A DNA stretch of 64,000 nt. Origin: Nitrospirota bacterium. GTDB taxonomy: Bacteria; Nitrospirota; UBA9217. The stretch is from the NCBI GenBank assembly GCA_035623825.1, contig DASPSR010000008.1, positions 1-64,000 of the forward strand, written 5' to 3'. Below, piece after piece: positions 7,382 through 42,936 of the stretch; positions within the stretch are counted from its first letter, which is position 1, and the number at the start of each line of letters is the position of its first letter. Below the pieces are notes generated by a model. That model did no database searches. It had not been told where the DNA came from and saw nothing but the letters and a program-made list of their open reading frames with translations. Position numbers and translations under genes: made by a program.

Positions 7382-7783
7382 CTACATGCTGTGGATAAGA
7401 TACAGGAGCAGGAACAAGCCGATCACTATGACCGACATGGCGAGGAGCACGCTCAAAACGGGCGAAGGCACGTACGTATCATCATCGATCTGGCGCTCGA
7501 CCTTCTTATATCTGATGAATGCGAGCACTCCCATGAGCATGCCCAGCCCCACCAGGAGGATCCCGATGAGGGAGGAGTATCCCGGGGCGGGCGGCGTGGC
7601 CTGTTTTCCCATGTAATACGCCATCTGCTTCACGAAGAGCGAGAACTTCTCGACGACGAACCCGAATGCCATGACGGCAATGCTCGTTCTGATCCAGGCG
7701 AGGAATGTCCGCTCATTCGCCATATGGACGCGGCGGTTGTGGCCACCCTTCGATTCTTTTTCTTCTCGCGCTTCCGGCGCCAT
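7382..7783 (-). CDS. DUF202 (YidH-like) inner membrane protein
   Basis: HMANERTFLAWIRT signature followed by three hydrophobic helices. Confidence 0.9.
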   Translation of the reverse strand: MAPEAREEKESKGGHNRRVHMANERTFLAWIRTSIAVMAFGFVVEKFSLFVKQMAYYMGKQATPPAPGYSSLIGILLVGLGMLMGVLAFIRYKKVERQIDDDTYVPSPVLSVLLAMSVIVIGLFLLLYLIHSM

Positions 7784-31106: not shown

Positions 31107-31147
31107 ATATAAGTGGCACAGAAGCAAATCATATGAGGAGGTCTGTA

Positions 31148-31648
31148 ATGGGGAAGAGACAGCTTTTATTCGTCACGTATCGTGATGAAAATATCGAGGA
31201 AGGCGTTTCCTACGCCGTCGAGCTCGCCAAGGCGATGTATGAGGATATCACGCTCCTGTTGGTGCAGAAAAGGAGCAAGCTCATGGAAAAGCTTGGGACC
31301 CTGATGACAGCAGTGAGCTTTGCCGAGGCCGATGAACATGATACGGCACGGCAGATCATGGCCGGAGTCACTCATAAAGTGCACGGGAACTATGAGAAGA
31401 AGCTCGCGGAAGTCATCAAGAAATGTCACGGGGAAGGCATCCAGGTGAATGTCCATAGCACGGACCTGGACGCTGTTACCGGCATCCGCACATTTCTGAA
31501 GGCGCACGCGGGGATAGACAAGGTCGTTTTAAGCCCGGCGGTGACCGAGGCAGGGAACGTCACCACCAGAGACCTGAACCGTCTCGTGCGGACGGCGTCC
31601 CGCCCCATCGTTACCATGACCAGGCAGACGTGCGCCGTTGCCGGATAA
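31148..31648 (+). CDS. hypothetical protein with degenerate universal stress protein-like fold
   Basis: RBS GAGGAGG; YAVELAKAM..ITLLLV N-terminus and SRPIVTM C-terminus resemble USP. Confidence 0.6.
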   Translation: MGKRQLLFVTYRDENIEEGVSYAVELAKAMYEDITLLLVQKRSKLMEKLGTLMTAVSFAEADEHDTARQIMAGVTHKVHGNYEKKLAEVIKKCHGEGIQVNVHSTDLDAVTGIRTFLKAHAGIDKVVLSPAVTEAGNVTTRDLNRLVRTASRPIVTMTRQTCAVAG

Positions 31649-31729
31649 TGATCGGCATCGCTTGAACACAAGTTTTACTGGAAAGTCTTAGCTTGCAGTT
31701 TACTTTACTATATGAACAGGAGATGAAAA

Positions 31730-32656
31730 ATGTACCTATATCTACCGGTAGCACTGACCAGCATCAATATCCTCATACCACTTGGACTGGGACTGGCCGT
31801 GGGATTGCTCTCCGGCCTCTTCGGCGTGGGCGGCGGCTTTCTGATGACGCCTCTGCTCATCATGTTCGGCATCCCGTCAACGGTCGCCGCGGCGACTGAC
31901 TCGAACCAGATCGTGGCTGCATCCACTTCTGGCACCTATGCGCACTGGAAGGTCGGGAACGTGGACTTCAAGATGGGGCTGTACCTCCTCGCAGGCGGGT
32001 TTCTCGGCGGGGTCGTGGGCGTCCAGGCGATCAAGCTGCTGCACGCCATGGGCAACGCCGATTTCGTGATCAAGATGACCTATGTGCTCATGCTCGGCAT
32101 CGTGGGCACCTACATGTTCATCGAGAGCCTCCAGAGCATGAAGAAGAAAAAGGGCCCCGCCGTTGAAGAAGTGAAGGAAAAAAAGGAATCGGCAGTGGGA
32201 AAGTTCCTCAAGGCCCTGCCGCTCCAGACCCATTTTGAAAAGTCAGGGATCACCCATTCGGTCCTGGTCCCGATCGTCCTCGGCGGCTTCGTGGGCGTGC
32301 TCGCGGCGATCATGGGCGTGGGCGGCGGTTTCCTGATGGTGCCGATCATGGTCTACATGCTCAGGATGCCCATGCACGTCGTTGTCGGCACGAGCCTGTT
32401 CCAGATCCTGTTTACCTGCATCGAGGTCACGTTCCTTCAGGCCTATACCAACCACAGCGTGGATTTCATCCTGGCGGTCCTGCTGCTCCTGGGTTCCACG
32501 ATCGGCGCCCAGGTGGGAGCGGTTTTCGGCAGGAAACTCAAGGCGGACCAGCTCAAGATCCTCCTCGCGGGCATCGTGCTGGCCGTAACCGTCAAAATCG
32601 TATTCGAGCTGACGCTCACACCGTCGCTACTGATTTCACAGGCAGGAGGACACTAA
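31730..32656 (+). CDS. TauE/SafE family (sulfite exporter-like) permease
   Basis: Duplicated GLFGVGGGFL / IMGVGGGFL motifs, VVGTSLFQ. Confidence 0.92.
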   Translation: MYLYLPVALTSINILIPLGLGLAVGLLSGLFGVGGGFLMTPLLIMFGIPSTVAAATDSNQIVAASTSGTYAHWKVGNVDFKMGLYLLAGGFLGGVVGVQAIKLLHAMGNADFVIKMTYVLMLGIVGTYMFIESLQSMKKKKGPAVEEVKEKKESAVGKFLKALPLQTHFEKSGITHSVLVPIVLGGFVGVLAAIMGVGGGFLMVPIMVYMLRMPMHVVVGTSLFQILFTCIEVTFLQAYTNHSVDFILAVLLLLGSTIGAQVGAVFGRKLKADQLKILLAGIVLAVTVKIVFELTLTPSLLISQAGGH

Positions 32657-32659
32657 TCC

Positions 32660-33466
32660 ATGAAAACGTTCAACGTGAAACGAACAAGGTTCAATGTGAA
32701 GGGATTCCTCGCTGTCGCCTTCTTGCTGGTCAATTTAGGAGCCGCGGGCACGGCATCTGCCATGCTCACGGCCAAGGCGAACCATGACCACATCAGCATC
32801 GACTTCTTCTATCACGGCAGCACCGTAAGCATCAAGGGAGAAGCCGACCCGGGCGTCGACCTGGTCATTAAAGTGACCGACCGCGCGGGCCATCACGTCA
32901 TGAAACAAAAAGGAAAGGTTGGCGGGCTTCTGTGGATGAACGTGGGAATGCTCAATTTCGAGCGCACGCCGAACTTCTACGCCGTCCATAGCACGAGAAA
33001 GCTCGAGGACATCTTAAGCCCGGACGAGATGGAGAAATACACCCTCGGGTATCCCGCCCTGGAAAAGCAGGTTGAGGTTACGCCGGCCGTGAACGAGGAA
33101 GAGAAGGCCAAGTGGTTTGCCGAGTTCGTAAAATACAAGGAAGCCTCAAAGGTCTATGCCTCTTCATACGGGAACATCACGACGACGGACACGAAGGACG
33201 GGCACATGGAATATTATATCCTGACGGACTGGCCCTACCAGGCGTCGCCCGGCGATTATCTCGTTACGGTCTATGCGGTCAAGAACGGCAAGGTCGTGGA
33301 ACAGGCCGAATCAAAGGTGAACGTCGAACAGGTCGGCACGGTCAAGACGCTGGCGACCATGGCCAAGAACAATGCAGCTTTCTACGGCATCCTTTCGATC
33401 GGGATCGCCTTGGGTGCTGGCTTCGGCGTGGGCATGGTGTTCAGGAAGGGCGGAGGTTCCCATTGA
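32660..33466 (+). CDS. TIGR02186-like exported protein with C-terminal TM anchor
   Basis: Signal peptide, IDFFYHG, KGKVGGLLWMN, C-terminal TM; typical partner of TauE. Confidence 0.8.
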   Translation: MKTFNVKRTRFNVKGFLAVAFLLVNLGAAGTASAMLTAKANHDHISIDFFYHGSTVSIKGEADPGVDLVIKVTDRAGHHVMKQKGKVGGLLWMNVGMLNFERTPNFYAVHSTRKLEDILSPDEMEKYTLGYPALEKQVEVTPAVNEEEKAKWFAEFVKYKEASKVYASSYGNITTTDTKDGHMEYYILTDWPYQASPGDYLVTVYAVKNGKVVEQAESKVNVEQVGTVKTLATMAKNNAAFYGILSIGIALGAGFGVGMVFRKGGGSH

Positions 33467-34329
33467 TGTTCAGCTCGATTGTAGTGGGATATGACGAGTC
33501 GCCGTCGAGCAGGGCGGCGCTCAAAGAAGCTACCCTCTGGATAAAGAACCACGGGGGACAGCTCTTCCTCGTTCACGCGGTCTACTTCGACCAGGAGGAG
33601 TTCACGACTCTGCCTTCCCAGAGGGAGAAGCGATTCGAGATCGGGACGAAAATATGTCTGGAGGCGAAGAAGAGCCTCCGCGATGAGTACGGCCTGAACG
33701 GCAGCATCGAGTCGCTCATGTGCGAGGGCGAGCCGCACGACGTGATCGTGGACATCGCCCGGGGGAAGGATGCAGACCTTATTGCTCTCGGCACCTACGG
33801 CAGGAAAGGGCTCAAGCGGCTGCTCATGGGCAGCGTGACGTCGCAAGTCATCCTGAATTCACCCTGCGATGTGCTCGTGGTCAAAAAGCCGTGCTCCCAG
33901 TGCAGCGGGAGCTACCATTCCCTGCTGGTCCCCTTCGACGGGTCCGAGATGAGCAAAAAGGCGCTGACCCGCGCCTGCGAATTGTCGAAGGTTGACGGCG
34001 CTGAGATCTCGGTCCTGTACGTGATACCCCGGTACGAGGAGATGATGGATTTCTTCAAGACCGAGAACATTAAGAAGAGTCTCTACCAGGAGGCGGAGAA
34101 GATAGTCGAGGGAGCGAAGAGGCTCGCGGCGGGGCTGGGAGTCCCGATCAAGGCGGTTGTGCAGGAAGGCCATGCCGGGGACAAGGTCGTGGAGATCGCC
34201 GACACGATTAGGCATGATCTCATCGTCGTGGGCACCCACGGATGGCGGGGCGTCAACAAGGCGATCATGGGGAGCACGGTGGAGCGAATCATTGCCTATG
34301 CCTCCTGCCCCACGCTGATCGCGAGGTAG
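33466..34329 (+). CDS. tandem universal stress protein
   Basis: Two USP domains (IVVGYDES..GTYGRKG..MGSVT; LVPFDGS..GTHG..MGSTV); TGATG overlap with the upstream gene. Confidence 0.9.
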   Translation: MFSSIVVGYDESPSSRAALKEATLWIKNHGGQLFLVHAVYFDQEEFTTLPSQREKRFEIGTKICLEAKKSLRDEYGLNGSIESLMCEGEPHDVIVDIARGKDADLIALGTYGRKGLKRLLMGSVTSQVILNSPCDVLVVKKPCSQCSGSYHSLLVPFDGSEMSKKALTRACELSKVDGAEISVLYVIPRYEEMMDFFKTENIKKSLYQEAEKIVEGAKRLAAGLGVPIKAVVQEGHAGDKVVEIADTIRHDLIVVGTHGWRGVNKAIMGSTVERIIAYASCPTLIAR

Positions 34330-34432
34330 ACGGCGCCTGGCGGCCCGGACGGTCCTTGACGAGGCGAGATGGCGGTTCGATGAACTGCGGTATCAGAAAA
34401 TCATGGCATCATGAGAAGGAGCGTGATATATT

Positions 34433-34855
34433 ATGAGAGGTTTTAGAAAGGTTCTTATCGCACTGAACGGATCCAAACAGGTCCTGGAACAGGGCATCAG
34501 GCTTGCCAAGGACGAAAAGACATGGATCACGGTCGTGAAGGTTGTCCGGCCCTTTGACGGAGAACTCAACCTGACGGGCATCAAGAACCTGGGCGATGTC
34601 CTGGACGACGGGGCCGCCGAGGCCGTTTCCGTTATCAATGAGGTAGCCGACGCCGAGGGCGCAATGGTCAAGACGCGGCTGGAATCGGGCGACGTGCCGG
34701 ACAGGATCGTGGAGGTCGCGGCTGAAGAAAAGTGCGATCTCATCATCATGGGGTCGAAGAAGAAGAAAGGCATCCTGAGCAGGCTCTTCGGCGATCATGT
34801 CGTGGAGAAGGTGATCGACCGCGCGCCCTGCCCGGTATACGTTGTCGGAGTATAG
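34433..34855 (+). CDS. universal stress protein
   Basis: DLIIMGS...LFG..V.KVI.RAPCPVYVV. Confidence 0.9.
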   Translation: MRGFRKVLIALNGSKQVLEQGIRLAKDEKTWITVVKVVRPFDGELNLTGIKNLGDVLDDGAAEAVSVINEVADAEGAMVKTRLESGDVPDRIVEVAAEEKCDLIIMGSKKKKGILSRLFGDHVVEKVIDRAPCPVYVVGV

Positions 34856-34998
34856 AGAAAAAGGGGTTTGAGTACGGCGCGACCACGGCTCTGCGCGGTC
34901 GCAGCGGGGGATTTCCGGCACGGCGCATCCGTCCGGCATCATGATGATGCAGCAGCCTGAAGCGCTTTGCCCGCAGAGCGGCTAAAAAAGGAGCAAGT

Positions 34999-35187
34999 AT
35001 GTTCGAAGGCTTGGCACAGCCAATGCACCTTATCCTGATACTGCTCATCGTTTTGATCTTCTTCGGCCCGGGGAAGCTCCCGGAGCTCGGCGAGGGCCTC
35101 GGCAAGAGCATCAAGGCGTTCAAGAAGGCGATGAAAGAGGGGCCGGACGCCCCGGCAATAGAAAAGAAAGAGGATAAGAAAGCTTAA
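34999..35187 (+). CDS. tatA: twin-arginine translocase TatA/TatE subunit
   Basis: N-terminal TM, FGPGKLPELG.GLGKSIKAFK amphipathic helix. Confidence 0.92.
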   Translation: MFEGLAQPMHLILILLIVLIFFGPGKLPELGEGLGKSIKAFKKAMKEGPDAPAIEKKEDKKA

Positions 35188-35374
35188 TCCGCGCGGGCGG
35201 GACGTTCAAAGAAGCAGCGGATGAAGAAACAGCGGCCTTAAGGGACAAGCGAACGATTGCGTGATCCTGGCAGCTTACATTCGACGGATCATTGATTCGG
35301 ACGGGCAATGCCACACGCCGAAATAGACCTCGCCAACAGCATCTACCGATTTCTCGACACGCCGGACAGATTTC

Positions 35375-35403
35375 TTTACAAAAACGATTAACCACCGTAT
35401 TAT
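35375..35403 (+). promoter_or_regulatory. candidate sigma70 promoter
   Basis: TTTACA-N17-TATTAT, 33 bp upstream of ATG 35437. Confidence 0.55.
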
Positions 35404-35436
35404 TATATAGTGAGGCAAGGTCAAGGGGCTATTTCC

Positions 35437-37089
35437 ATGATCAGGGATAAATTCAATAGACTGCTCCGTCTGGGGGTCCTCTCCGAGGTGGATCTGGACT
35501 CGATGGAGCGGGAAACGACAGCCACGGGGATAGCGGTCGAGGAGCTGATGATCCGGCAAGGGATCCCGAAACACGAGGTCCTCTTCTGCCTTTCGGAATA
35601 TTACGGCTATCCGTTCGTTGAGTTCGATGAGGACGTGGCCGCATCCTATTATCTGGTCATGCGGCTCGACCTGGAGCACCAGAAGAGCGCCCTGTGGTTT
35701 CCTCTCTCCGTGCGAGAGAAAAAAGCCGAGGTCATCGCCTGCCGTCCCGACGACGAGCGTGTGATCGAAGACATCAAGAAAACGCTCGGAGTGGAGCAGA
35801 TCGACTTCCGCGTGTCGCTTCCGACCGACCTCATCCGCATCATCGAGCATAATTTTGACGTGAACCGCAATTTCCTGATCTCCGGGGGCCGGACGCCGCT
35901 CGCGCGTGTGAGGACGTTCCTCGCCTACCAGCGGTCGACCTACGCGCATTACCGCACGCACTTCGCCAAAGGGCGGACGGGTCTCGCCTTCATACGGACC
36001 GGCGTCTCCTTCATCGTCATCGCCCTTCTGTTTTTGCGCGTCCTGGGGGCCGGGTTCTACGCGCTCCTGGAAGCACCGCTCTTCGTTGCAGGCGTCATCA
36101 TGGTCTACGACGGGATCAAATGGTATCTGCCCGCCCGGAAGGTCGCGGGCAGGCCGGTTGACGCCGCCTGCACGGATCCGACATGGGGCACCTGCGTGCT
36201 GAGCGCGGATGTGAGGGACGGCCGCCCGGTCATCACGCGGACAAAAGAGATTAAGGGGGCGGGGGAGCACAGGGCCGACTGGGAGAATCTCTCGCCCGTG
36301 ATGCGGAGAAGGTTCCTGGCCAGCGACCGGACCGATATGGCCGAGGAGCGGACGTCGCTTGCTGGTCACCGGACGAAGCTCGCCCGGGCGCGGACGGGAC
36401 TCGCCTTTACCAGGACCGGCATTGCCTTCACCGGTCTCGGCATAGCGCTGATGCGGCAGTTTGAAGCGAGCCGGTGGTCGGCGTGGTCGGTCTTGGATGT
36501 CGCGCTGATCGTCGCGGGCATTCTCATGTCCGCCGAGGGCTTTTACTGGTATTTCGGCGGGCGCAGGTCCGGGATCGAGGGCTTCCGGTCCGTCATGGCG
36601 GGACTCAACAGGGAAACGATCTGGGACCTCGTGTTTCCGCCTGGCCACAAGCGATCGGGGCCAGGCAAGGACAGGCCGGGTCCGCCGGTCACCGCGAACC
36701 AGAAGCCGGGCATCTGGGCCACGACAGGCCACGCCCTGGAACGGACGGTGCTTGCCGACCGCCGCGGCGTCATGGCAAGGCTCCGAACCGTCATGGCGGT
36801 GGCTCGGACGGGGATGGCGTACATCAGGACGGGTATGAGCATTACGTCCGTCGGCGCGGGACTGATGGCCTATTTCGGCGTCGCCTCGCCGGGCTGGACC
36901 GTCTTCAATGCCCTGCTGATCATAGGCGGGCTTCTCCTGGTCGCGGACGGGTACCGCTGGATGCTTCCCGCCGAGCGCATGAGGAAGGAGTACCCGTACT
37001 GCTACGGGGATATGGAGATAACGATTCCCGATTACGGAAGACCGAACTCTGAATGGGGAACGGTCGTTTTTAACCAATATGACGCATGA
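35437..37089 (+). CDS. MshEN/T2SSE_N-fold domain fused to three DUF202 repeats
   Basis: N-terminal GspE-N-like region (LLRLGVLS..LSEYYGYPFV..WFPL..EVIACRP); three RTG(L/M)A(F/Y)xRTG units, each followed by two TMs. Confidence 0.75.
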   Translation: MIRDKFNRLLRLGVLSEVDLDSMERETTATGIAVEELMIRQGIPKHEVLFCLSEYYGYPFVEFDEDVAASYYLVMRLDLEHQKSALWFPLSVREKKAEVIACRPDDERVIEDIKKTLGVEQIDFRVSLPTDLIRIIEHNFDVNRNFLISGGRTPLARVRTFLAYQRSTYAHYRTHFAKGRTGLAFIRTGVSFIVIALLFLRVLGAGFYALLEAPLFVAGVIMVYDGIKWYLPARKVAGRPVDAACTDPTWGTCVLSADVRDGRPVITRTKEIKGAGEHRADWENLSPVMRRRFLASDRTDMAEERTSLAGHRTKLARARTGLAFTRTGIAFTGLGIALMRQFEASRWSAWSVLDVALIVAGILMSAEGFYWYFGGRRSGIEGFRSVMAGLNRETIWDLVFPPGHKRSGPGKDRPGPPVTANQKPGIWATTGHALERTVLADRRGVMARLRTVMAVARTGMAYIRTGMSITSVGAGLMAYFGVASPGWTVFNALLIIGGLLLVADGYRWMLPAERMRKEYPYCYGDMEITIPDYGRPNSEWGTVVFNQYDA

Positions 37090-38317
37090 ACTGAAAAACG
37101 ATGACCTTTTGGACGCAGCCGTGCAGCAGGGCGTGGAATTTTCCCTTCTGGTCGAAGGGGGGCTCTTAAGCCCTGCCGCTCTCGAAGAAGCGGCAAGCAG
37201 GGCCCAGGCGAGAGGCATCGCTCTCGAAAGGGTGCTGCACAGGGAATACGGCATAGCCAAGCAGGACCTGCTCAAGGCGCTTTCCGGATACTATAAATGC
37301 GCTTCCATCGAATATGACGAAAGGTTGCCGATCCCGCCGGAACTCTTGAATCTCAGCCCCGACTCGCTCTCGACGTACCAATGGATGCCCGTCATGAAGG
37401 ACAAATCCGGCACGGTGGTCATCGCCGCGAGGAATCCCGAAAGCCAGGCGATGCGGTCGGACGTAAAAAGATTGATTGCGGCTGACAGGTTCGAGTTCCG
37501 CGTTTCGCTCGACCCTGACATCCAGTGGTACATCCAGGATTTTCTCCATGCGAAGGTGGGGCTCCTGATCGGAACTGAGCGGACGGGTCTGGCCTTCTGG
37601 CGGAACACGATGGCCCAGTGGCGCACGAGGATGGCCTGCTACCGGACCGATCTTGCGAAAGCAAGGACCGGCCTTGCCTTCATGCGGTGGGGGTTGGGCA
37701 TGATCGCGCTCTCGAACGCGCTCCTGCAATCGAAGAGCACGAGCAGCAATCCATACCTGTATTTTTCGGTGCTCATCGCGGGCATCGTCATTTCCTTTTA
37801 CGGTCTTCCCCAGTATCTGAACGTCCGGAAATCCCGGCTCACTCCTCCTGGCAACCAGACGCTGGTCGAGGTCACGGCGGCAACGATCCAATTCCTCGAA
37901 AATTATCATTTCATCGAGGGTACGGGTACGAGCCGGGAGACGCAGGGAACGATGCTTGCGCGGATGGGCGATTATCTTGCCGACCATAGCACCTATCTCA
38001 GCCCGACCCCGTCGAGCAAGACGCGCACCATGTTCGCCCGTGAGCGGAACGTATTGGCGGCCCAGCGGACGATCGCGGCCTGCTATCGCACCATCTATGC
38101 CCGGGCAAGGACCGGGCTCGCGTTCATCCGGACCGGAATCTCCTTCACGAGCATCGGCATAGGCATTTTGAGTTATTTCGGGTTCGGCCTGCTCACCTCG
38201 TTCAATATCTTGCTCATCGCAGCGGGGCTTCTGATGCTCGCGGACGGCGCGCTCTGGTACTGGCCCGTCAGAAAGGAGCAAGCGGAAATTCCGAGGGGCA
38301 TTGCTTATCCCGAGTGA
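37079..38317 (+). CDS. MshEN/T2SSE_N-fold domain fused to two DUF202 repeats
   Basis: LLVEGGLLS..LLKALSGYY..WMPV..VVIAARNP N-terminus; two RTGLAFxR units with TM pairs; overlaps the previous gene. Confidence 0.75.
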   Translation: MTHELKNDDLLDAAVQQGVEFSLLVEGGLLSPAALEEAASRAQARGIALERVLHREYGIAKQDLLKALSGYYKCASIEYDERLPIPPELLNLSPDSLSTYQWMPVMKDKSGTVVIAARNPESQAMRSDVKRLIAADRFEFRVSLDPDIQWYIQDFLHAKVGLLIGTERTGLAFWRNTMAQWRTRMACYRTDLAKARTGLAFMRWGLGMIALSNALLQSKSTSSNPYLYFSVLIAGIVISFYGLPQYLNVRKSRLTPPGNQTLVEVTAATIQFLENYHFIEGTGTSRETQGTMLARMGDYLADHSTYLSPTPSSKTRTMFARERNVLAAQRTIAACYRTIYARARTGLAFIRTGISFTSIGIGILSYFGFGLLTSFNILLIAAGLLMLADGALWYWPVRKEQAEIPRGIAYPE

Positions 38318-38463
38318 CGGGGCTCAGGGTGCGGTCCCCTGCCGAATGGGGGCTGATGTCCGCGTGAAGAGGGAATCGATACACAATCGCCCGCTGTCAT
38401 CTGTCGACCGCGAACGCCGCGTGAATCGCAGGACGGGGGCGTAATGGACTATATCCAATCAAG

Positions 38464-39903
38464 ATGAAGATCGAAAAGAAAATCATCGTTACGAACGCGA
38501 TCAACGCCGGATTGATCATCCTGATCGGCCTCTTTGCGCTTCAGAACATGAACCATGTTCTTACCAAGCTCAGGTTCGTGGAGATCGCCGACGATTTGAA
38601 CGCTTCGTTTCTGGAAATGAGGCTTTCGGAGAAGAATTATTTTCTGTACAAGGACAAGACGGCGCTTCCCGCCATCCAAAGCAACATAGAAAGGACAGCA
38701 GCAACGATCAGGGGCGTACGCGAGGATATCATCCGCGCAATCGGCGAAAGCGAACTCGCGAAGCTGACGGGCCACCTCCAGTCCTATTCGTATGTCGTCG
38801 ACGAAGCCGCGAGGGGAAATCCGAGCGACACGGAGCTTGAATCGCGGCTCCGGACCGAGGGGAAGGCGCTGAAGGAATTTTCAGAATCCATCACGAACCT
38901 TGAACGGAAGCGCGTCAACGACATCATCGCGAGTTCGAAGTACATTCTGATCTTCTCCTTCTGGGTGATCCTCGCTTTCGCGCTGCTGATAAGCCATTTT
39001 ATTTCGCAGAAGATCGTGCGGTCGCTCCGGGAAATCGAGAAGCTGGCGAAATCGATCTCCGGGGGCAATTTCCACAGGATAGAAGGGTTCCAGTCGAACG
39101 ATGAGCTCGGATCGGTCATCACGGCCATCAACTCCATGTCCGAAGAGCTCGGCCACCGCGAAGAGCAGCTCATCCAGTCCAAGAAGCTCGCATCGCTCGG
39201 CATCCTCACGGCAGGGGTGGCCCATGAGCTCACTAACCCCTTGAACAACATCTCGATGATCGCCCAGACCTATGCGGAACTGTACGACAAGCTGAGCGGC
39301 AGTGAGCGTGTAGAGTTCATGAGCAAGGTCGAGGAGGAGACGGAGCGGATTCGGAAGATCGTCAAGAACCTCCTCGATTTTTCCAAACCGAAGGACGCTC
39401 ATCCGAAGGAAGCGGACATCAACGCGGTCATCCAGAAGACGCTTACCCTGATGCAGAACATGATCGACGTCTCAAACGTCGAAACGACGGTCAATCTCTA
39501 TAGCGCATTGCCGCATGTATATGTCGATGAGCATCAGATGCAGCAGGTGCTCGTGAACCTCATCACCAACGCGGTCCAGGCCATGTCGGCGGGAGGCAGG
39601 ATCGTCATATCGTCGAGGCTCGGGAAAGGCGGGGAATCCGTCGAGGTCGGAGTGGCGGACACGGGCAAAGGCATCCCGCCCGAGTTCCTGCCGCATATCT
39701 TTGACCCCTTTTTCAGTACCAAGGGCGACGGGGGCACCGGCCTTGGGCTGTCGGTCAGTTACGGGATCATCAAGAACCATAAAGGAGACATCCGGGTGGA
39801 AAGCAAAGTGGGGGTCGGGACGACCTTCACCATCGAGCTGCCGAGGTACAATCAAACAATAGAGGAGAAGATCGATGAACAGTCACAGGATCATGGTCAT
39901 TGA
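38464..39903 (+). CDS. membrane sensor histidine kinase (HAMP)
   Basis: LEMRLSEKNYFLY, HELTNPL, PFFSTK..GTGLGL. Confidence 0.92.
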   Translation: MKIEKKIIVTNAINAGLIILIGLFALQNMNHVLTKLRFVEIADDLNASFLEMRLSEKNYFLYKDKTALPAIQSNIERTAATIRGVREDIIRAIGESELAKLTGHLQSYSYVVDEAARGNPSDTELESRLRTEGKALKEFSESITNLERKRVNDIIASSKYILIFSFWVILAFALLISHFISQKIVRSLREIEKLAKSISGGNFHRIEGFQSNDELGSVITAINSMSEELGHREEQLIQSKKLASLGILTAGVAHELTNPLNNISMIAQTYAELYDKLSGSERVEFMSKVEEETERIRKIVKNLLDFSKPKDAHPKEADINAVIQKTLTLMQNMIDVSNVETTVNLYSALPHVYVDEHQMQQVLVNLITNAVQAMSAGGRIVISSRLGKGGESVEVGVADTGKGIPPEFLPHIFDPFFSTKGDGGTGLGLSVSYGIIKNHKGDIRVESKVGVGTTFTIELPRYNQTIEEKIDEQSQDHGH

Positions 39904-40243
39904 CGACGAAAAGATCGTGGGCGACATGGCAAAGCTGTCGCTCGGGCAGGAAGGCTACATTGTCGAGACCTTCCTCAATGCCGAGCCGGCGCTGGCGAGG
40001 CTCAAAGAGGAGAAATTCAATGTCGTCGTCACCGACTACAAGATGAAGGGCATAGACGGCATGGAGGTCCTGCGGACGGTGAAGAAGCTGTACCCCGAGA
40101 CCAAGGTCATCATGATCACTGCCTTCGCCAACCTCGATGCGGCCATCGAGGCCCTTCGGGGTGACGTGCACGACTTTTTCCCCAAGCCCGTAAAGATCAA
40201 GGAGCTGAAGGAATCCATACGGCGCGCGCTGAGCAAGCCCTAG
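39875..40243 (+). CDS. single-domain response regulator (receiver only)
   Basis: VIDDE, TDYKM, MITAF and PKP receiver motifs; no output domain. Confidence 0.92.
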   Translation: MNSHRIMVIDDEKIVGDMAKLSLGQEGYIVETFLNAEPALARLKEEKFNVVVTDYKMKGIDGMEVLRTVKKLYPETKVIMITAFANLDAAIEALRGDVHDFFPKPVKIKELKESIRRALSKP

Positions 40244-40353
40244 CGCCCGATCAGCCCAGAGCGGTGCGCGGACGCTGGGCGGTCCGGCATGAATGCATGC
40301 GGGACGCCTTGGTGCAAAGACGTCTCACCCGCTCCGGTGAATAGGATCAGAAC

Positions 40354-42936
40354 ATGAAAAGCGGTTTTTTGCAATCTTTCCTGGCTTCGATGGCCAACGT
40401 GTCGGCCTTCAGGAAGTATCCTGCGGACGCCGAGCAGTTCAGGGCCGTGTTCGACCGCTTCAAGAAAGTGCTCGACAGCAACAACCGGGCGCTCGAAACG
40501 ATCACGGACATGGGCGAGAAGCTGGGCGGGGACTACCTGTTCGACATCATGTATATCAGGAAGGCCTACTCCGAGCTCAAGGGCGACCTCGAGCGCTCCA
40601 TCCGGAATTTCGACGAGCTCACGCACCGCCGGTATGTGCGCCTCCACGACGTGTTCGCACGCATTGACTCCCTGATCCAGCAGATGGTCTCCGATGCACA
40701 GCCGTCCTTACAGGAGCCGCTCCTGTTTTTTGAGGATATCCCCTGGGGGATGGTGCGGGAGGTCGGCGGCAAGAACGCCCATCTCTCGGAGGTCAAGAAC
40801 CGGCTGACCCTGTCTGTTCCCGACGCTTTCGTCCTGACGACCGCGGCCTATGATGAATTCATGCGCGCAAACGGGCTCGAAGAGCGCGTGGCGCGCATCG
40901 CACGGGACCCCCTCTCCGCTGCCACCGCGCTCCAGGAACTGCAGGAGCTCGTCATGCACGGGTCTGTCCCTCCCCCCCTCGGCCGGGCAATCGGGAAGGC
41001 GGTGCAGAAGATCAAGAGCCGTAACGGCGATTGCTATCTCGCGGTACGGAGCAGCGCCGAGGAAGAAGACAGCGGCCGTTCATTCGCAGGGCAGTTTAAG
41101 ACCATCCTGAACGTCCCGCTCGATATCGAGGCGCTGGAGCGGGCGTATCGGGAGGTCATCGCGAGCCTCTTTTCTGAAAAAGCCGTGGCCTATGAGCGTC
41201 AGATGGGGTACGAGCCGGGGAACCTGAAAATGGCGGCAGGGTGCATGGTCATGGTGGATGCGGTGTCGAGCGGTGTCATGTATTCCACGGCGCCCGATGG
41301 CGACAGGGACGCCCTCATCATCAGCGCCGCATGGGGACTGGGAGAGGCCGTAGTCGAGGGGAAGACCGATGCCGACCTCTACAGGGTCAGGAAGGGTCAG
41401 CCCCATGATCTCTTAAGCTCGGTGATCGGGAAGAAATCCCTCATGATCTCTGGTTTGGACGGGGGCGGAGTGGCCGAGGCCGAAACTCCTGATGACCTTC
41501 GCGGAAAACCATGCCTGACCGCAGTGCAGGCGGCGGAGCTCGCATCTTCGGCTATCAAGATCGAGAAGTACTTCGGGAGCCCCCGGGATATCGAATGGGC
41601 GATCGGCAAGGACGGGACGATCTTCATTCTCCAGGCGCGCCCGCTCACCATCGCCCGGGAGGACCAGGGCGAGGTACCTGTGGAGCATCCGGCCCCTGAA
41701 TCAGGGACAGCGTACCCGGTTCTGATAAGGAACCGTGGCAGCGTGGTGCAAAAAGGGGCGGGCGCGGGGAAGGTCTTTTTGGTACGGACAAAGGACGATC
41801 TGGATGATTTCCCGAAGGGGGCAGTGCTCGTTGCGAAGCACGACTCATCGCTGTACGTCCGGGTCATGCCGTTCGTGGCCGCGATCATCACCGAAACCGG
41901 AACGCAGACCAGCCATATGGCGGCTCTCTGCAGGGAACTCAGGGTCCCGGCGATCGTGAACGCAGCCGGTGTCACGGAGATCCTGAAACCGGGACAGGAC
42001 ATCACCCTCGTCGCAGGAGACGATGGCACATCGGCCCTCTATGAGGGGATCATCAGGGATCTCATTGCCGGGGCCGGGCAGGGCAAAGCGGGGATGGAGG
42101 ATGTCCATGAATACCGCAGGAAGCGGTACATCCTGCGGTACATCTCCCCCCTTAACCTTGTGGACCCGCTGATGGAGGAGTTCACTCCGGAGGGGTGCCG
42201 GACCCTGCACGACATCCTGAGGTTCATACACGAAAAATCCGTCGCGGAGCTTGTGGACAGCGCGCGCGAGGGGAACGTCAAATTCAGGAAACAGGGGACG
42301 CTCATCCCGTTGGAACTTCCAGTGCCCGCCGGCATCGTGGTGATGGACATGGGCGGCGGTCTGGATATCGGGGGAGACGGCAGGCGGGCGACATTCGAAG
42401 AGATCACGTCAGTCCCTTTCCGGGCGATCATCAGGGGCATGCTGCATCCCGGGGCCTGGCACTCGGAGCCGGTCGCCCTGAAAGCCCATGATCTTCTTTC
42501 GAGCATGATGCGGATGCCGGACATCGACAGCGGGAACCCTGCCGGATACAATCTGGCGGTCATATCCCGCGAGTATGTGAACCTGAGCATAAGGTTCGGG
42601 TACCACTTCAATATGATCGACTGCTACTGCGGCGAGAAAGCGAAGAACAACCACATTTACTTCCGTTTCCTGGGCGGCGCGACGGACATGGTAAAGCGTT
42701 CGAGGAGGCTGGAGCTCATAGCGAGAATCTTGCGGGAGTACGGCTTCAATATCAGGATAAAGGGGGACCTCCTCATCGCCCGCCTCGCGGGCCTTAACCC
42801 GGAAGAGATGGAGAAGGTGCTCGACCAGGCGGGAAGGCTGATATCCTATATGCGGCAGCTGGATGCCGTGATGCACGATGATGCGGCCATCGAGCGGCAT
42901 GCGAAGAATTTTTTAGCAGGCGTATACACGTATTGA
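40354..42936 (+). CDS. PEP-synthase/PPDK-like ATP-grasp plus phospho-His protein lacking the pyruvate-binding barrel
   Basis: VGGKNAHL, AVRSSA.EED..SFAGQF, WGLGEAVV, DIEWA..ILQARP, TSHMAALCRE; C-terminal RFGYHF/FRFLGG domain. Confidence 0.85.
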   Translation: MKSGFLQSFLASMANVSAFRKYPADAEQFRAVFDRFKKVLDSNNRALETITDMGEKLGGDYLFDIMYIRKAYSELKGDLERSIRNFDELTHRRYVRLHDVFARIDSLIQQMVSDAQPSLQEPLLFFEDIPWGMVREVGGKNAHLSEVKNRLTLSVPDAFVLTTAAYDEFMRANGLEERVARIARDPLSAATALQELQELVMHGSVPPPLGRAIGKAVQKIKSRNGDCYLAVRSSAEEEDSGRSFAGQFKTILNVPLDIEALERAYREVIASLFSEKAVAYERQMGYEPGNLKMAAGCMVMVDAVSSGVMYSTAPDGDRDALIISAAWGLGEAVVEGKTDADLYRVRKGQPHDLLSSVIGKKSLMISGLDGGGVAEAETPDDLRGKPCLTAVQAAELASSAIKIEKYFGSPRDIEWAIGKDGTIFILQARPLTIAREDQGEVPVEHPAPESGTAYPVLIRNRGSVVQKGAGAGKVFLVRTKDDLDDFPKGAVLVAKHDSSLYVRVMPFVAAIITETGTQTSHMAALCRELRVPAIVNAAGVTEILKPGQDITLVAGDDGTSALYEGIIRDLIAGAGQGKAGMEDVHEYRRKRYILRYISPLNLVDPLMEEFTPEGCRTLHDILRFIHEKSVAELVDSAREGNVKFRKQGTLIPLELPVPAGIVVMDMGGGLDIGGDGRRATFEEITSVPFRAIIRGMLHPGAWHSEPVALKAHDLLSSMMRMPDIDSGNPAGYNLAVISREYVNLSIRFGYHFNMIDCYCGEKAKNNHIYFRFLGGATDMVKRSRRLELIARILREYGFNIRIKGDLLIARLAGLNPEEMEKVLDQAGRLISYMRQLDAVMHDDAAIERHAKNFLAGVYTY

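Follow-up and report, generated by a model that had tools for sequence, protein, structure and literature searches.

DUF202 proteins are widespread in bacteria, but to our knowledge no function has been established for any of them; among their relatives, only the eukaryotic VTC polyphosphate pore has been characterised. In PMC9911596, VTC is described as a Vtc1:Vtc3:Vtc4 pentamer of 3:1:1 stoichiometry with three transmembrane (TM) helices per subunit. The channel is formed by the five TM1 helices and is lined by K24 and R31 of Vtc1 and their counterparts in Vtc3 and Vtc4, with R31 of Vtc1 at the narrowest point. The architecture SPX-VTC-DUF202 is named in PMC12388464. For the bacterial YidH type the sole functional study found in a literature search was negative in the direct assay: YidH of E. 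coli came through a screen for D-alanine cross-feeding but showed no export when assayed directly (PMC10299036). Here we describe two adjacent genes, called A and B, in a stretch of 64,000 nucleotides (the window) of contig DASPSR010000008.1 from a Nitrospirota bacterium (GCA_035623825.1). They encode three and two DUF202 units, respectively, which in each gene product are preceded by an MshEN-like domain. We propose that the five units may build a two-component-regulated, pseudo-pentameric, arginine-lined anion pore, a reading which in our judgement is evenly balanced between right and wrong.

Genes A and B lie on the same strand and overlap by 11 nt (Table 1). The reading frame of A is open from position 35410, and the ATG at 35437 is where the full-length homologues begin. 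The initial annotation, made from the letters alone, had described two overlapping genes with an MshEN-type N-terminal domain that lacks a following ATPase, and with three and two DUF202 units, and all of this is borne out by the reading frames and by Pfam. Gene product A matches DUF202 (PF02656) in three stretches (E 2.2e-18, 66.9 bits) and MshEN (PF05157) at residues 56-141 (E 1.4e-8); B matches DUF202 in two stretches (E 3e-8, 34.4 bits) and MshEN at residues 81-157 (E 2.9e-8), the DUF202 cut-off being 23.4 bits. Scored singly with PF02656 in a scan of the genome, the units reach 31.4, 30.0, 29.6, 27.6 and 23.3 bits, so that the last one lies just below the cut-off. No ATPase family was found in A or B by Pfam, the T2SSE ATPase domain being absent from both, and the NCBIfam model TIGR02538 scores 16.5 bits, far short of its cut-off of 675.65. 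The five repeat cores RTG[LM]A[FY]xR[TW]G, which had been placed approximately before, are all present and start at nt 35974, 36391, 36805, 37664 and 38108, each 3 nt to the right of the earlier position. Taken together, the feature goes far beyond chance: among 8000 candidates scored, 992 homologues of A were found at E<=1e-3, and 110 distinct loci show the two genes in this arrangement.

The order of a three-unit gene followed by a two-unit gene is conserved. In total 130 loci were examined, 50 of them taken from 401 sampled genomes of the phylum to which the window belongs and 80 from a scan of all species genomes, and 110 distinct loci from Nitrospirota and Desulfobacterota were left after removal of 20 duplicates. 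The loci of the all-species scan are labelled Nitrospirota, Thermodesulfovibrionales, Dissulfurispiraceae, Candidatus Sulfobium, Desulfovibrionaceae, Solidesulfovibrio, Syntrophobacteraceae, Desulfobacterales and Desulfobulbus. An intact three-unit gene is directly followed by a two-unit gene in 100 of the 110 loci. Three further loci show the same arrangement with a frameshift (L023, L041, L104), three have the order A-A'-B with 3+3+2 units (L037, L038, L103), and four are cut by a contig end (L072, L083, L099, L120). The supposition that such pairs always total five units thus holds for 103 of the 106 informative loci, while the remaining three add an extra three-unit gene. Combinations of 2+2, 3+3 or 4+1 units or a lone gene could not be identified among the loci examined, which were retrieved with A-type queries. 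The two reading frames overlap or almost touch each other (median gap between the calls -41 nt), and one genome contains two separate 3+2 pairs (L039, L040). Since each position keeps its own signature across genomes, the units represent five distinct, orthologously conserved positions.

Two observations on individual loci may be added. The A' gene of the three A-A'-B loci encodes a three-unit paralogue of 568-569 aa, which is located between A and B and differs from A mainly in the first ~50 residues. The loci L063 and L064 are the same A-B pair, present at either end of a single 24.8-kb contig and oppositely oriented; the most likely explanation is a palindromic artefact of the assembly.

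When 1.84 billion representatives were searched with a profile of the unit, 2795 proteins were obtained at E<=1e-3. The best 150 of them include A-type proteins with three units and B-type proteins with two units, and no fused A-B chain could be identified among these 150. Five units in one polypeptide nevertheless occur naturally, though rarely: the proteins P0216 (476 aa) and P0273 (487 aa) each carry five tandem DUF202 units of two TM helices in a single chain, with basic motifs of two heptads. No other cluster of this kind was found, and the two come from short Logan contigs. Four other proteins (P0221, P0249, P0246, P0245) were considered as fused A-B candidates and rejected, as they are unrelated coiled-coil or heptad-only proteins. 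Another protein, P0133 (399 aa), combines an A-type N-domain with only two units, the heptads of A1 being joined to the TM part of A2; its sequence would be explained either by a deletion between the repeat cores A1 and A2 or by an assembly collapse.

All five units of the window follow one plan, in which about 30 residues of RTxLAxx heptads run uninterrupted into TM1 and are followed by a short loop and the return helix TM2. In an alignment of the five units the gaps are confined to the TM1-TM2 loop. Conservation was computed over 546 distinct units gathered from all loci. The heptad reads R(a) T(b) x L/M(d) A(e) x x, with arginine at 'a' in 80, 100, 100, 99, 100 and 96% across six successive heptads and alanine at 'e' in 99, 98, 91, 95 and 85%. 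In TM1 the positions 41, 44 and 48, which belong to the same a/e stripe, are Gly, Ala or Ser in 91, 84 and 64% of the units, and arginine reappears at position 51 in 54%. G39 and G69 are found in 100% and G76 in 98%. In the AF2 models of A (pLDDT 81.7, pTM 0.70) and B (pLDDT 75.0, pTM 0.52) the heptads and TM1 form a single continuous helix of ~50 residues in all five units. The models also agree with the earlier count of two TM helices after the long helix in each unit, unlike the three of the Vtc subunits and of the YidH type. The argument that had been built on this count, namely that two TM helices per unit place all Arg helices on one side of the membrane, is upheld.

The assembly of the two proteins was predicted from residues 145-550 of A and 160-412 of B, each with its own alignment. 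The complex scored 0.68 (runs 0.65, 0.73 and 0.68), and the best of three controls scored 0.00. In a benchmark of the 0.68 mark the counts were 58 of 80 for solved complexes and 2 of 110 for mismatched pairs, which is a rough guide, since custom alignments were used here. The runs share at least 79% of their contacts, with a partner pLDDT of at least 58. Helix A1 (152-202) is predicted to contact B2 (312-365) over its whole length, and so is helix A3 (432-478) with B1 (165-215). The stretch of A between 203 and 431 adds no residue to the predicted interface, which leaves A2 without contact to B. Since A1 meets B2, A3 meets B1, and A2 has only neighbours within its own chain, the contact map corresponds to a closed ring A1-A2-A3-B1-B2. 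In the model the g/a/d/e face of A3 and B2 would pack on the a/b/e/f face of B1 and A1. As the same faces pack at both junctions, both would have the same handedness, and the positions 'a' (Arg) and 'e' (Ala), which are common to both packing faces, would point to the axis. The 1:1 heterodimer with a ring of five units, as put forward in the initial annotation, thereby gains a predicted interface that is consistent with ring closure.

A different stoichiometry has to be weighed against this. Each of the two proteins might assemble only with copies of itself, or both might join in larger rings such as 2A+2B, in which case the sum of five would be incidental. The A-A'-B order in three loci could be understood in this way, although it would also fit a single B that pairs with one or the other of two A proteins. 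P0133, with its A-type N-domain and two units only, also fits such an assembly, but it looks like a deletion between the cores A1 and A2. That no fused chain is present among the best 150 representatives would also fit. Against such an assembly stand the 100 intact 3+2 loci with their overlapping or nearly touching genes, and the model, in which A contacts B in register at its two ends while the controls score 0.00. We consider an assembly other than 1:1 quite improbable.

In the pseudo-pentameric pore that we favour, A and B would form a 1:1 heterodimer whose five units, in the order given above, close a helical barrel of pseudo-five-fold symmetry. The heptad-TM1 helices would constitute the inner ring and the TM2 helices the outer ring. 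Arg 'a' and Ala 'e' are predicted to face the axis, which would give up to six stacked rings of five arginines each in a cytoplasmic stalk, and the a/e stripe would continue through TM1 as Gly, Ala and Ser. We infer that such a barrel would serve as a conduit for an anion or a linear polyanion across the cytoplasmic membrane. The MshEN-like domains would sit at the cytoplasmic tips of the stalk helices A1 and B1, most likely as protein-binding gates, and the histidine kinase (HK) and the single-domain response regulator (RR) which adjoin B would control the pore.

The sequence relation to the VTC pore can be followed with the help of a canonical protein of the YidH type, which is encoded by the only other DUF202 gene found in a scan of the window's genome (Table 1). 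Two arginines of this protein fall on K24 and R31 of Vtc1. By Pfam coordinates these correspond to the positions 23 and 30 of the extended units, which are Arg in 99% and 100% of the 546 units. Pfam coordinates were used here; the unit HMM slips by one heptad on the canonical protein, and even with this slip Arg falls on Arg. The comparison supports a kinship with the VTC pore, at the family level only. Of the proposals of the initial annotation, the two profile matches (PF02656 above the cut-off in both proteins, and PF05157 in both) were confirmed, and the likeness to the VTC pore stands as far as the Pfam family and the K24/R31 positions are concerned, without a direct match to VTC by unit profile or fold search.

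The N-terminal domains belong to a family in which a c-di-GMP receptor is known. The fold search with A (Foldseek) matches its first ~135-140 residues to MshE with bound c-di-GMP (5htl_B, E 1.6e-4, TMt 0.72, 134 columns), and the N-domain also matches PilF GSPII-B, XpsE-N and PilB-N (8pdk, 2d28, 7lko). According to PMC5013675, the receptor MshEN is defined by two tandem 24-residue motifs RLGxx(L/V/I)(L/V/I)xxG(L/V/I)(L/V/I)xxxxLxxxLxxQ. In its strict form or in the authors' relaxed form this motif could be identified in none of 59 A and none of 44 B orthologues, while as a control it is present in 3 of 6 other MshEN proteins from the window's genome. The NCBIfam model of the c-di-GMP motif gives 20.9 bits for B, its cut-off being 38, and no match for A. 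Gating by c-di-GMP, which the assignment of the MshEN-like domains as gates had raised as a possibility, was therefore rejected. The sequences rather suggest that the MshEN fold was kept and the nucleotide site lost, as in those members of the family that bind a partner. Each N-domain of the models runs straight into the distal tip of the stalk helix A1 or B1, a predicted position that would be suited to capping a pore mouth.

A more likely control than c-di-GMP, judged by gene order, would be the HK and RR genes downstream of B, which had been missed in the initial annotation. Among loci with at least 2.2 kb downstream of B, both genes follow B in 38 of 45 from Nitrospirota and in 14 of 19 from other taxa, and RR alone follows in four further loci of each group. 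The identity to the RR of the window is 59-95% in Nitrospirota loci and 62-80% in the others, well above that of A itself.

A second connection between receivers and DUF202 is provided by fusion proteins (P0307, P0358, P0361, P0305, P0303, P0347, P0359, P0318). The receiver-fused relatives comprise ~350-400 aa, in which ~11 Arg heptads and a single DUF202 unit are followed by a receiver at the C-terminus. Both domains were recognised by Pfam in all seven fusion proteins scanned, and the eighth (P0318) matched the unit HMM alone. The RR of the window is the best match of its genome to the DUF202-fused receiver (E 3.8e-25; next receiver 7.1e-18), and the match is reciprocal, the receivers fused to this unit being in turn the nearest relatives of the RR. 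From its domain content the fusion appears to be a response regulator that has a membrane pore unit for its output, and it would tie control by a phospho-receiver to the unit. In the A-B system the RR may act by binding to the MshEN-like domains. The fusion proteins belong to a wider architecture, represented by P0146, P0148, P0154, P0183 and relatives (852 matches at E<=1e-3), in which a very long RTxLAxx run, with 16 matches to the pattern in P0146, is combined with one unit of two TM helices and no MshEN domain. Its sources include Desulfomonilaceae, Acidobacteriota, Thermoleophilia and Actinobacteria, and some members have the precomputed Pfam label PF28019.1.

The same observations can be read without any transport. 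A and B would then be a membrane-anchored signalling device, acting as co-sensor or output of the HK-RR pair, and the Arg ladder would bind an anionic ligand or lipid head groups. The tight linkage of HK and RR in both phyla and the fusion of receivers to the DUF202 unit would be expected for such a device, and its N-domain would serve ligand or partner binding as elsewhere in the family; the small-residue stripe of TM1 would reflect tight packing of helices. It is less easily reconciled with a polar and small stripe that spans the whole of TM1 and with the arginine that returns behind it in about half of the units. Moreover, five distinct and strictly kept units with a ring-closing interface over their full length exceed the needs of an anchor, and the sole family member of known function uses the corresponding helix as pore lining. 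We therefore regard a pure signalling role as unlikely.

Several points weigh against the arginine-lined pore itself. The small residues in TM1 could equally indicate tight helix packing and not a pore, and five arginines per ring would repel each other unless counter-ions are bound. The complex model has a pLDDT of 58-66 only, and its good score may partly mirror the solved pentamer of the same family, VTC. Three loci with A-A'-B encode eight units, so that the total of five is not invariant, and lone B genes would be under-sampled by A-type queries. The link between RR and pore draws on gene order and one fusion family. As to the relation with VTC, the canonical DUF202 protein of the window aligns to the Vtc1 chains 9umg, 8i6v and 7ytj at the ANERTFL motif with E-values of 0.75-1.1 only. 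No VTC chain was found in the PDB sequences with the unit profile, which gave two chance-level matches (E 1.6 and 1.7). A whole-chain Foldseek search with A did not return a VTC chain either, but MshEN structures first and then low-probability, ABC-exporter-like matches; this last result is uninformative and not negative, a multidomain query with three units being a poor probe for a VTC subunit.

The most obvious cargo, by analogy to VTC, is polyphosphate, and the initial annotation had named it. In this case the ring would be a polyphosphate channel across the cytoplasmic membrane and the bacterial counterpart of the VTC pore. In its favour are the membership in the Pfam family of the VTC membrane domain with Arg at the K24 and R31 positions, and a stalk of 30 arginines that would suit a long linear polyanion. 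The gene content speaks against it. PPK1 and PPK2 were each found in none of five 100%-complete carrier genomes and are also missing from the window's own genome, which is 89.65% complete (the window's own genome and its five 100%-complete relatives being G000, G013, G095, G042, G343 and G184), and the VTC polymerase domain PF09359 is lacking in five of five genomes (G000, G013, G095, G042, G343; four of them 100% complete). Among five carriers from other taxa only one encodes PPK1. Ppx-GppA, which would be in keeping with a polyphosphate channel, could be identified in all five carrier genomes tested; this enzyme also acts on (p)ppGpp, and its presence is therefore not specific to polyphosphate. 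The carrier anaerobes may lack canonical polyphosphate synthesis, as far as their gene content tells. Polyphosphate as the substrate is thus not supported, barring some unknown synthase, and the polyphosphate channel appears to us decidedly unlikely.

One candidate for such a synthase is encoded next to the system. Downstream of RR lies the gene of a PpsA-like protein, an ATP-dependent phosphotransferase with an ATP-grasp domain and a phospho-His swivel but no PEP/pyruvate barrel. Its ~130 N-terminal and ~300 C-terminal residues have no family match, and the NCBIfam match covers only positions 7-466 of the 798 of PEP synthase and lies far below the cut-offs. Among loci that extend far enough, the gene is co-located downstream in 25 of 29 from Nitrospirota, which speaks for a role in a polyphosphate pathway, and in 0 of 6 from other taxa, which speaks against it. 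One could imagine the A-B ring as the export half of a PPK-independent machine for a linear phospho-polyanion (polyphosphate or similar), in which the PpsA-like enzyme makes the polymer in Nitrospirota and the HK-RR pair acts as switch. We rate this as very improbable; if true, it would be a bacterial analogue of the coupled synthesis and translocation by VTC in anaerobes which contain neither PPK1 and PPK2 nor the VTC polymerase. For the pore in general we would sooner expect the cargo to be a small inorganic oxyanion than polyphosphate. Because the named carriers all belong to sulfate-reducing or sulfur-disproportionating lineages, a sulfur or phosphorus oxyanion is a reasonable guess.

Table 1. 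Features of the A-B locus and of its surroundings in the window. Residue numbers refer to the respective protein.
Feature	Position	Strand	Description
Gene A	35437..37089	+	550 aa; MshEN-like N-domain and three extended DUF202 units
A N-domain, aa 1-145	35437..35871	+	MshEN/GSPII fold without c-di-GMP motif
Unit A1	35887..36183	+	Arg-heptad helix continuous with TM1, 152-203; TM2 209-237
Unit A2	36304..36600	+	Helix 287-341; TM2 349-390
Unit A3	36718..37014	+	Helix 431-480; TM2 485-518
Gene B	37079..38317	+	412 aa; MshEN-like N-domain and two extended DUF202 units
B N-domain, aa 1-160	37079..37558	+	MshEN-like, Pfam residues 81-157
Unit B1	37577..37873	+	Helix 166-217; TM2 225-251
Unit B2	38021..38314	+	Helix 313-367; TM2 373-402
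Sensor histidine kinase	38464..39903	+	HAMP-HisKA-HATPase (Pfam); co-conserved downstream of B
Single-domain response regulator	39875..40243	+	122 aa (Pfam); co-conserved
PpsA-like protein	40354..42936	+	860 aa; Pfam PPDK_N 136-440, PEP-utilizers 486-557
Promoter-like site	35375-35403	+	TTTACA-17-TATTAT, sigma-70-like; 10/12 positions matched; 34 nt before ATG
Upstream block	31133..34855	+	hyp171, TauE, Alph_Pro_TM, tandem Usp, Usp (Pfam); linked in Nitrospirota only
hyp171	31133..31648	+	171 aa; no Pfam/NCBIfam match; travels with TauE, Alph_Pro_TM in many Nitrospirota loci
Canonical single-unit DUF202 protein (YidH type)	7382..7783	-	133 aa; PF02656 77.4 bits; three hydrophobic segments

The upstream neighbours are linked to the pair in Nitrospirota only. 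A Usp gene precedes A in 25 of 44 Nitrospirota loci and TauE together with Alph_Pro_TM in 21 of 44, and none of the 19 loci of other taxa has either. The sigma70-like promoter of its own that had been ascribed to the gene pair does exist as a site in front of the ATG. It is the sole one in the 5.7 kb from 34800 to 40500, and shuffled sequences give 1.7 +/- 1.4 sites, so that the count is no better than chance and the position alone is suggestive. Parts of the locus were also encountered in one run of a peat metatranscriptome, in which 0.26 of the sampled words are present. Within A, the stretches 35961-36189 and 36290-36578 are covered by short contigs identical to the window, as are 34610-34883 in Usp and 31211-31431 in hyp171. 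Other contigs, 90-99% alike, lie over portions of A and B, of HK/RR and of the PpsA-like gene. This is a hint of expression only, since an RNA library may contain DNA, and stretches without coverage carry no information.

The A-B system offers a bacterial route to the function of DUF202, and some of its carriers have complete genomes. The five non-identical units are hard-wired as 3+2, so that each position of the proposed ring can be mutated alone. The stalk is predicted to contain 30 arginines, and from the dedicated pair of kinase and regulator the physiological trigger should become apparent. Should the ring be confirmed, DUF202 units would be seen to work in fives, whether these are supplied by separate chains as in VTC, by two chains as in A-B or by one chain as in P0216. 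Sulfate-reducing and sulfur-disproportionating anaerobes would then also possess regulated anion conduits of a new class.

The combination of domains has been catalogued and not interpreted. Automatic annotation already labels one cluster as 'DUF202/MshEN domain-containing protein', which qualifies the earlier remark that no description of the system was known; a literature search indeed found none. Among the titles listed for DUF202 no bacterial fusion was present, and nothing was found for DUF202 with MshEN, although the architecture table in the supplement of PMC5013675 might list it. That paper mentions MshEN fusions to ATPase, glycosyltransferase and other domains, and the word 'transmembrane' is absent from its text. 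With the N-terminal domains of MshE, PilB/PilF and GspE/XpsE the proteins A and B share the Pfam family MshEN over the whole fold of ~135-140 residues. In contrast to the ATPases MshE, PilB and GspE they possess neither a following ATPase nor the tandem c-di-GMP motif.

With regard to the units, the receiver-fused relatives (P0307, P0358, P0361, P0305) contain the same extended unit (94-108 bits against the unit HMM). They differ by a single unit per chain, presumably forming homo-oligomers, by ~11 heptads, by regulation in cis and by the lack of MshEN. Proteins of the YidH type share the DUF202 family and an ERTxLAxxRT-type motif at the start of TM1, but have one unit with three hydrophobic segments, no N-domain and 2-3 basic heptad positions. 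In architecture only, the proposed A-B pore would also resemble the CorA-type channels, with five subunits, two TM helices, a long stalk helix that leads into TM1 and a cytoplasmic regulatory domain. CorA is a homopentamer that conducts cations, and no sequence relation to A or B was seen.

A further comparison is that with VTC. Both systems have DUF202 units in the number of five, and in the proposed ring TM1 would form the inner circle with basic residues seven apart lining the pore, as it does in VTC. While VTC is composed of five separate chains with three TM helices per subunit, A and B have two TM helices per unit and distribute 3+2 tandem repeats over two chains. The SPX and TTM polymerase domains of VTC occur neither in A nor in B according to Pfam, and PF09359, as described above, is missing from the five genomes scanned, SPX having been searched in A and B and not genome-wide. 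In A and B the basic ladder is lengthened to 5-6 arginines per unit, in what would be a cytoplasmic stalk, and MshEN-like N-domains and a linked two-component pair are added. Taken as a pore, the A-B pair would thus be related to the VTC channel and would work like it, while being a system distinct from VTC.

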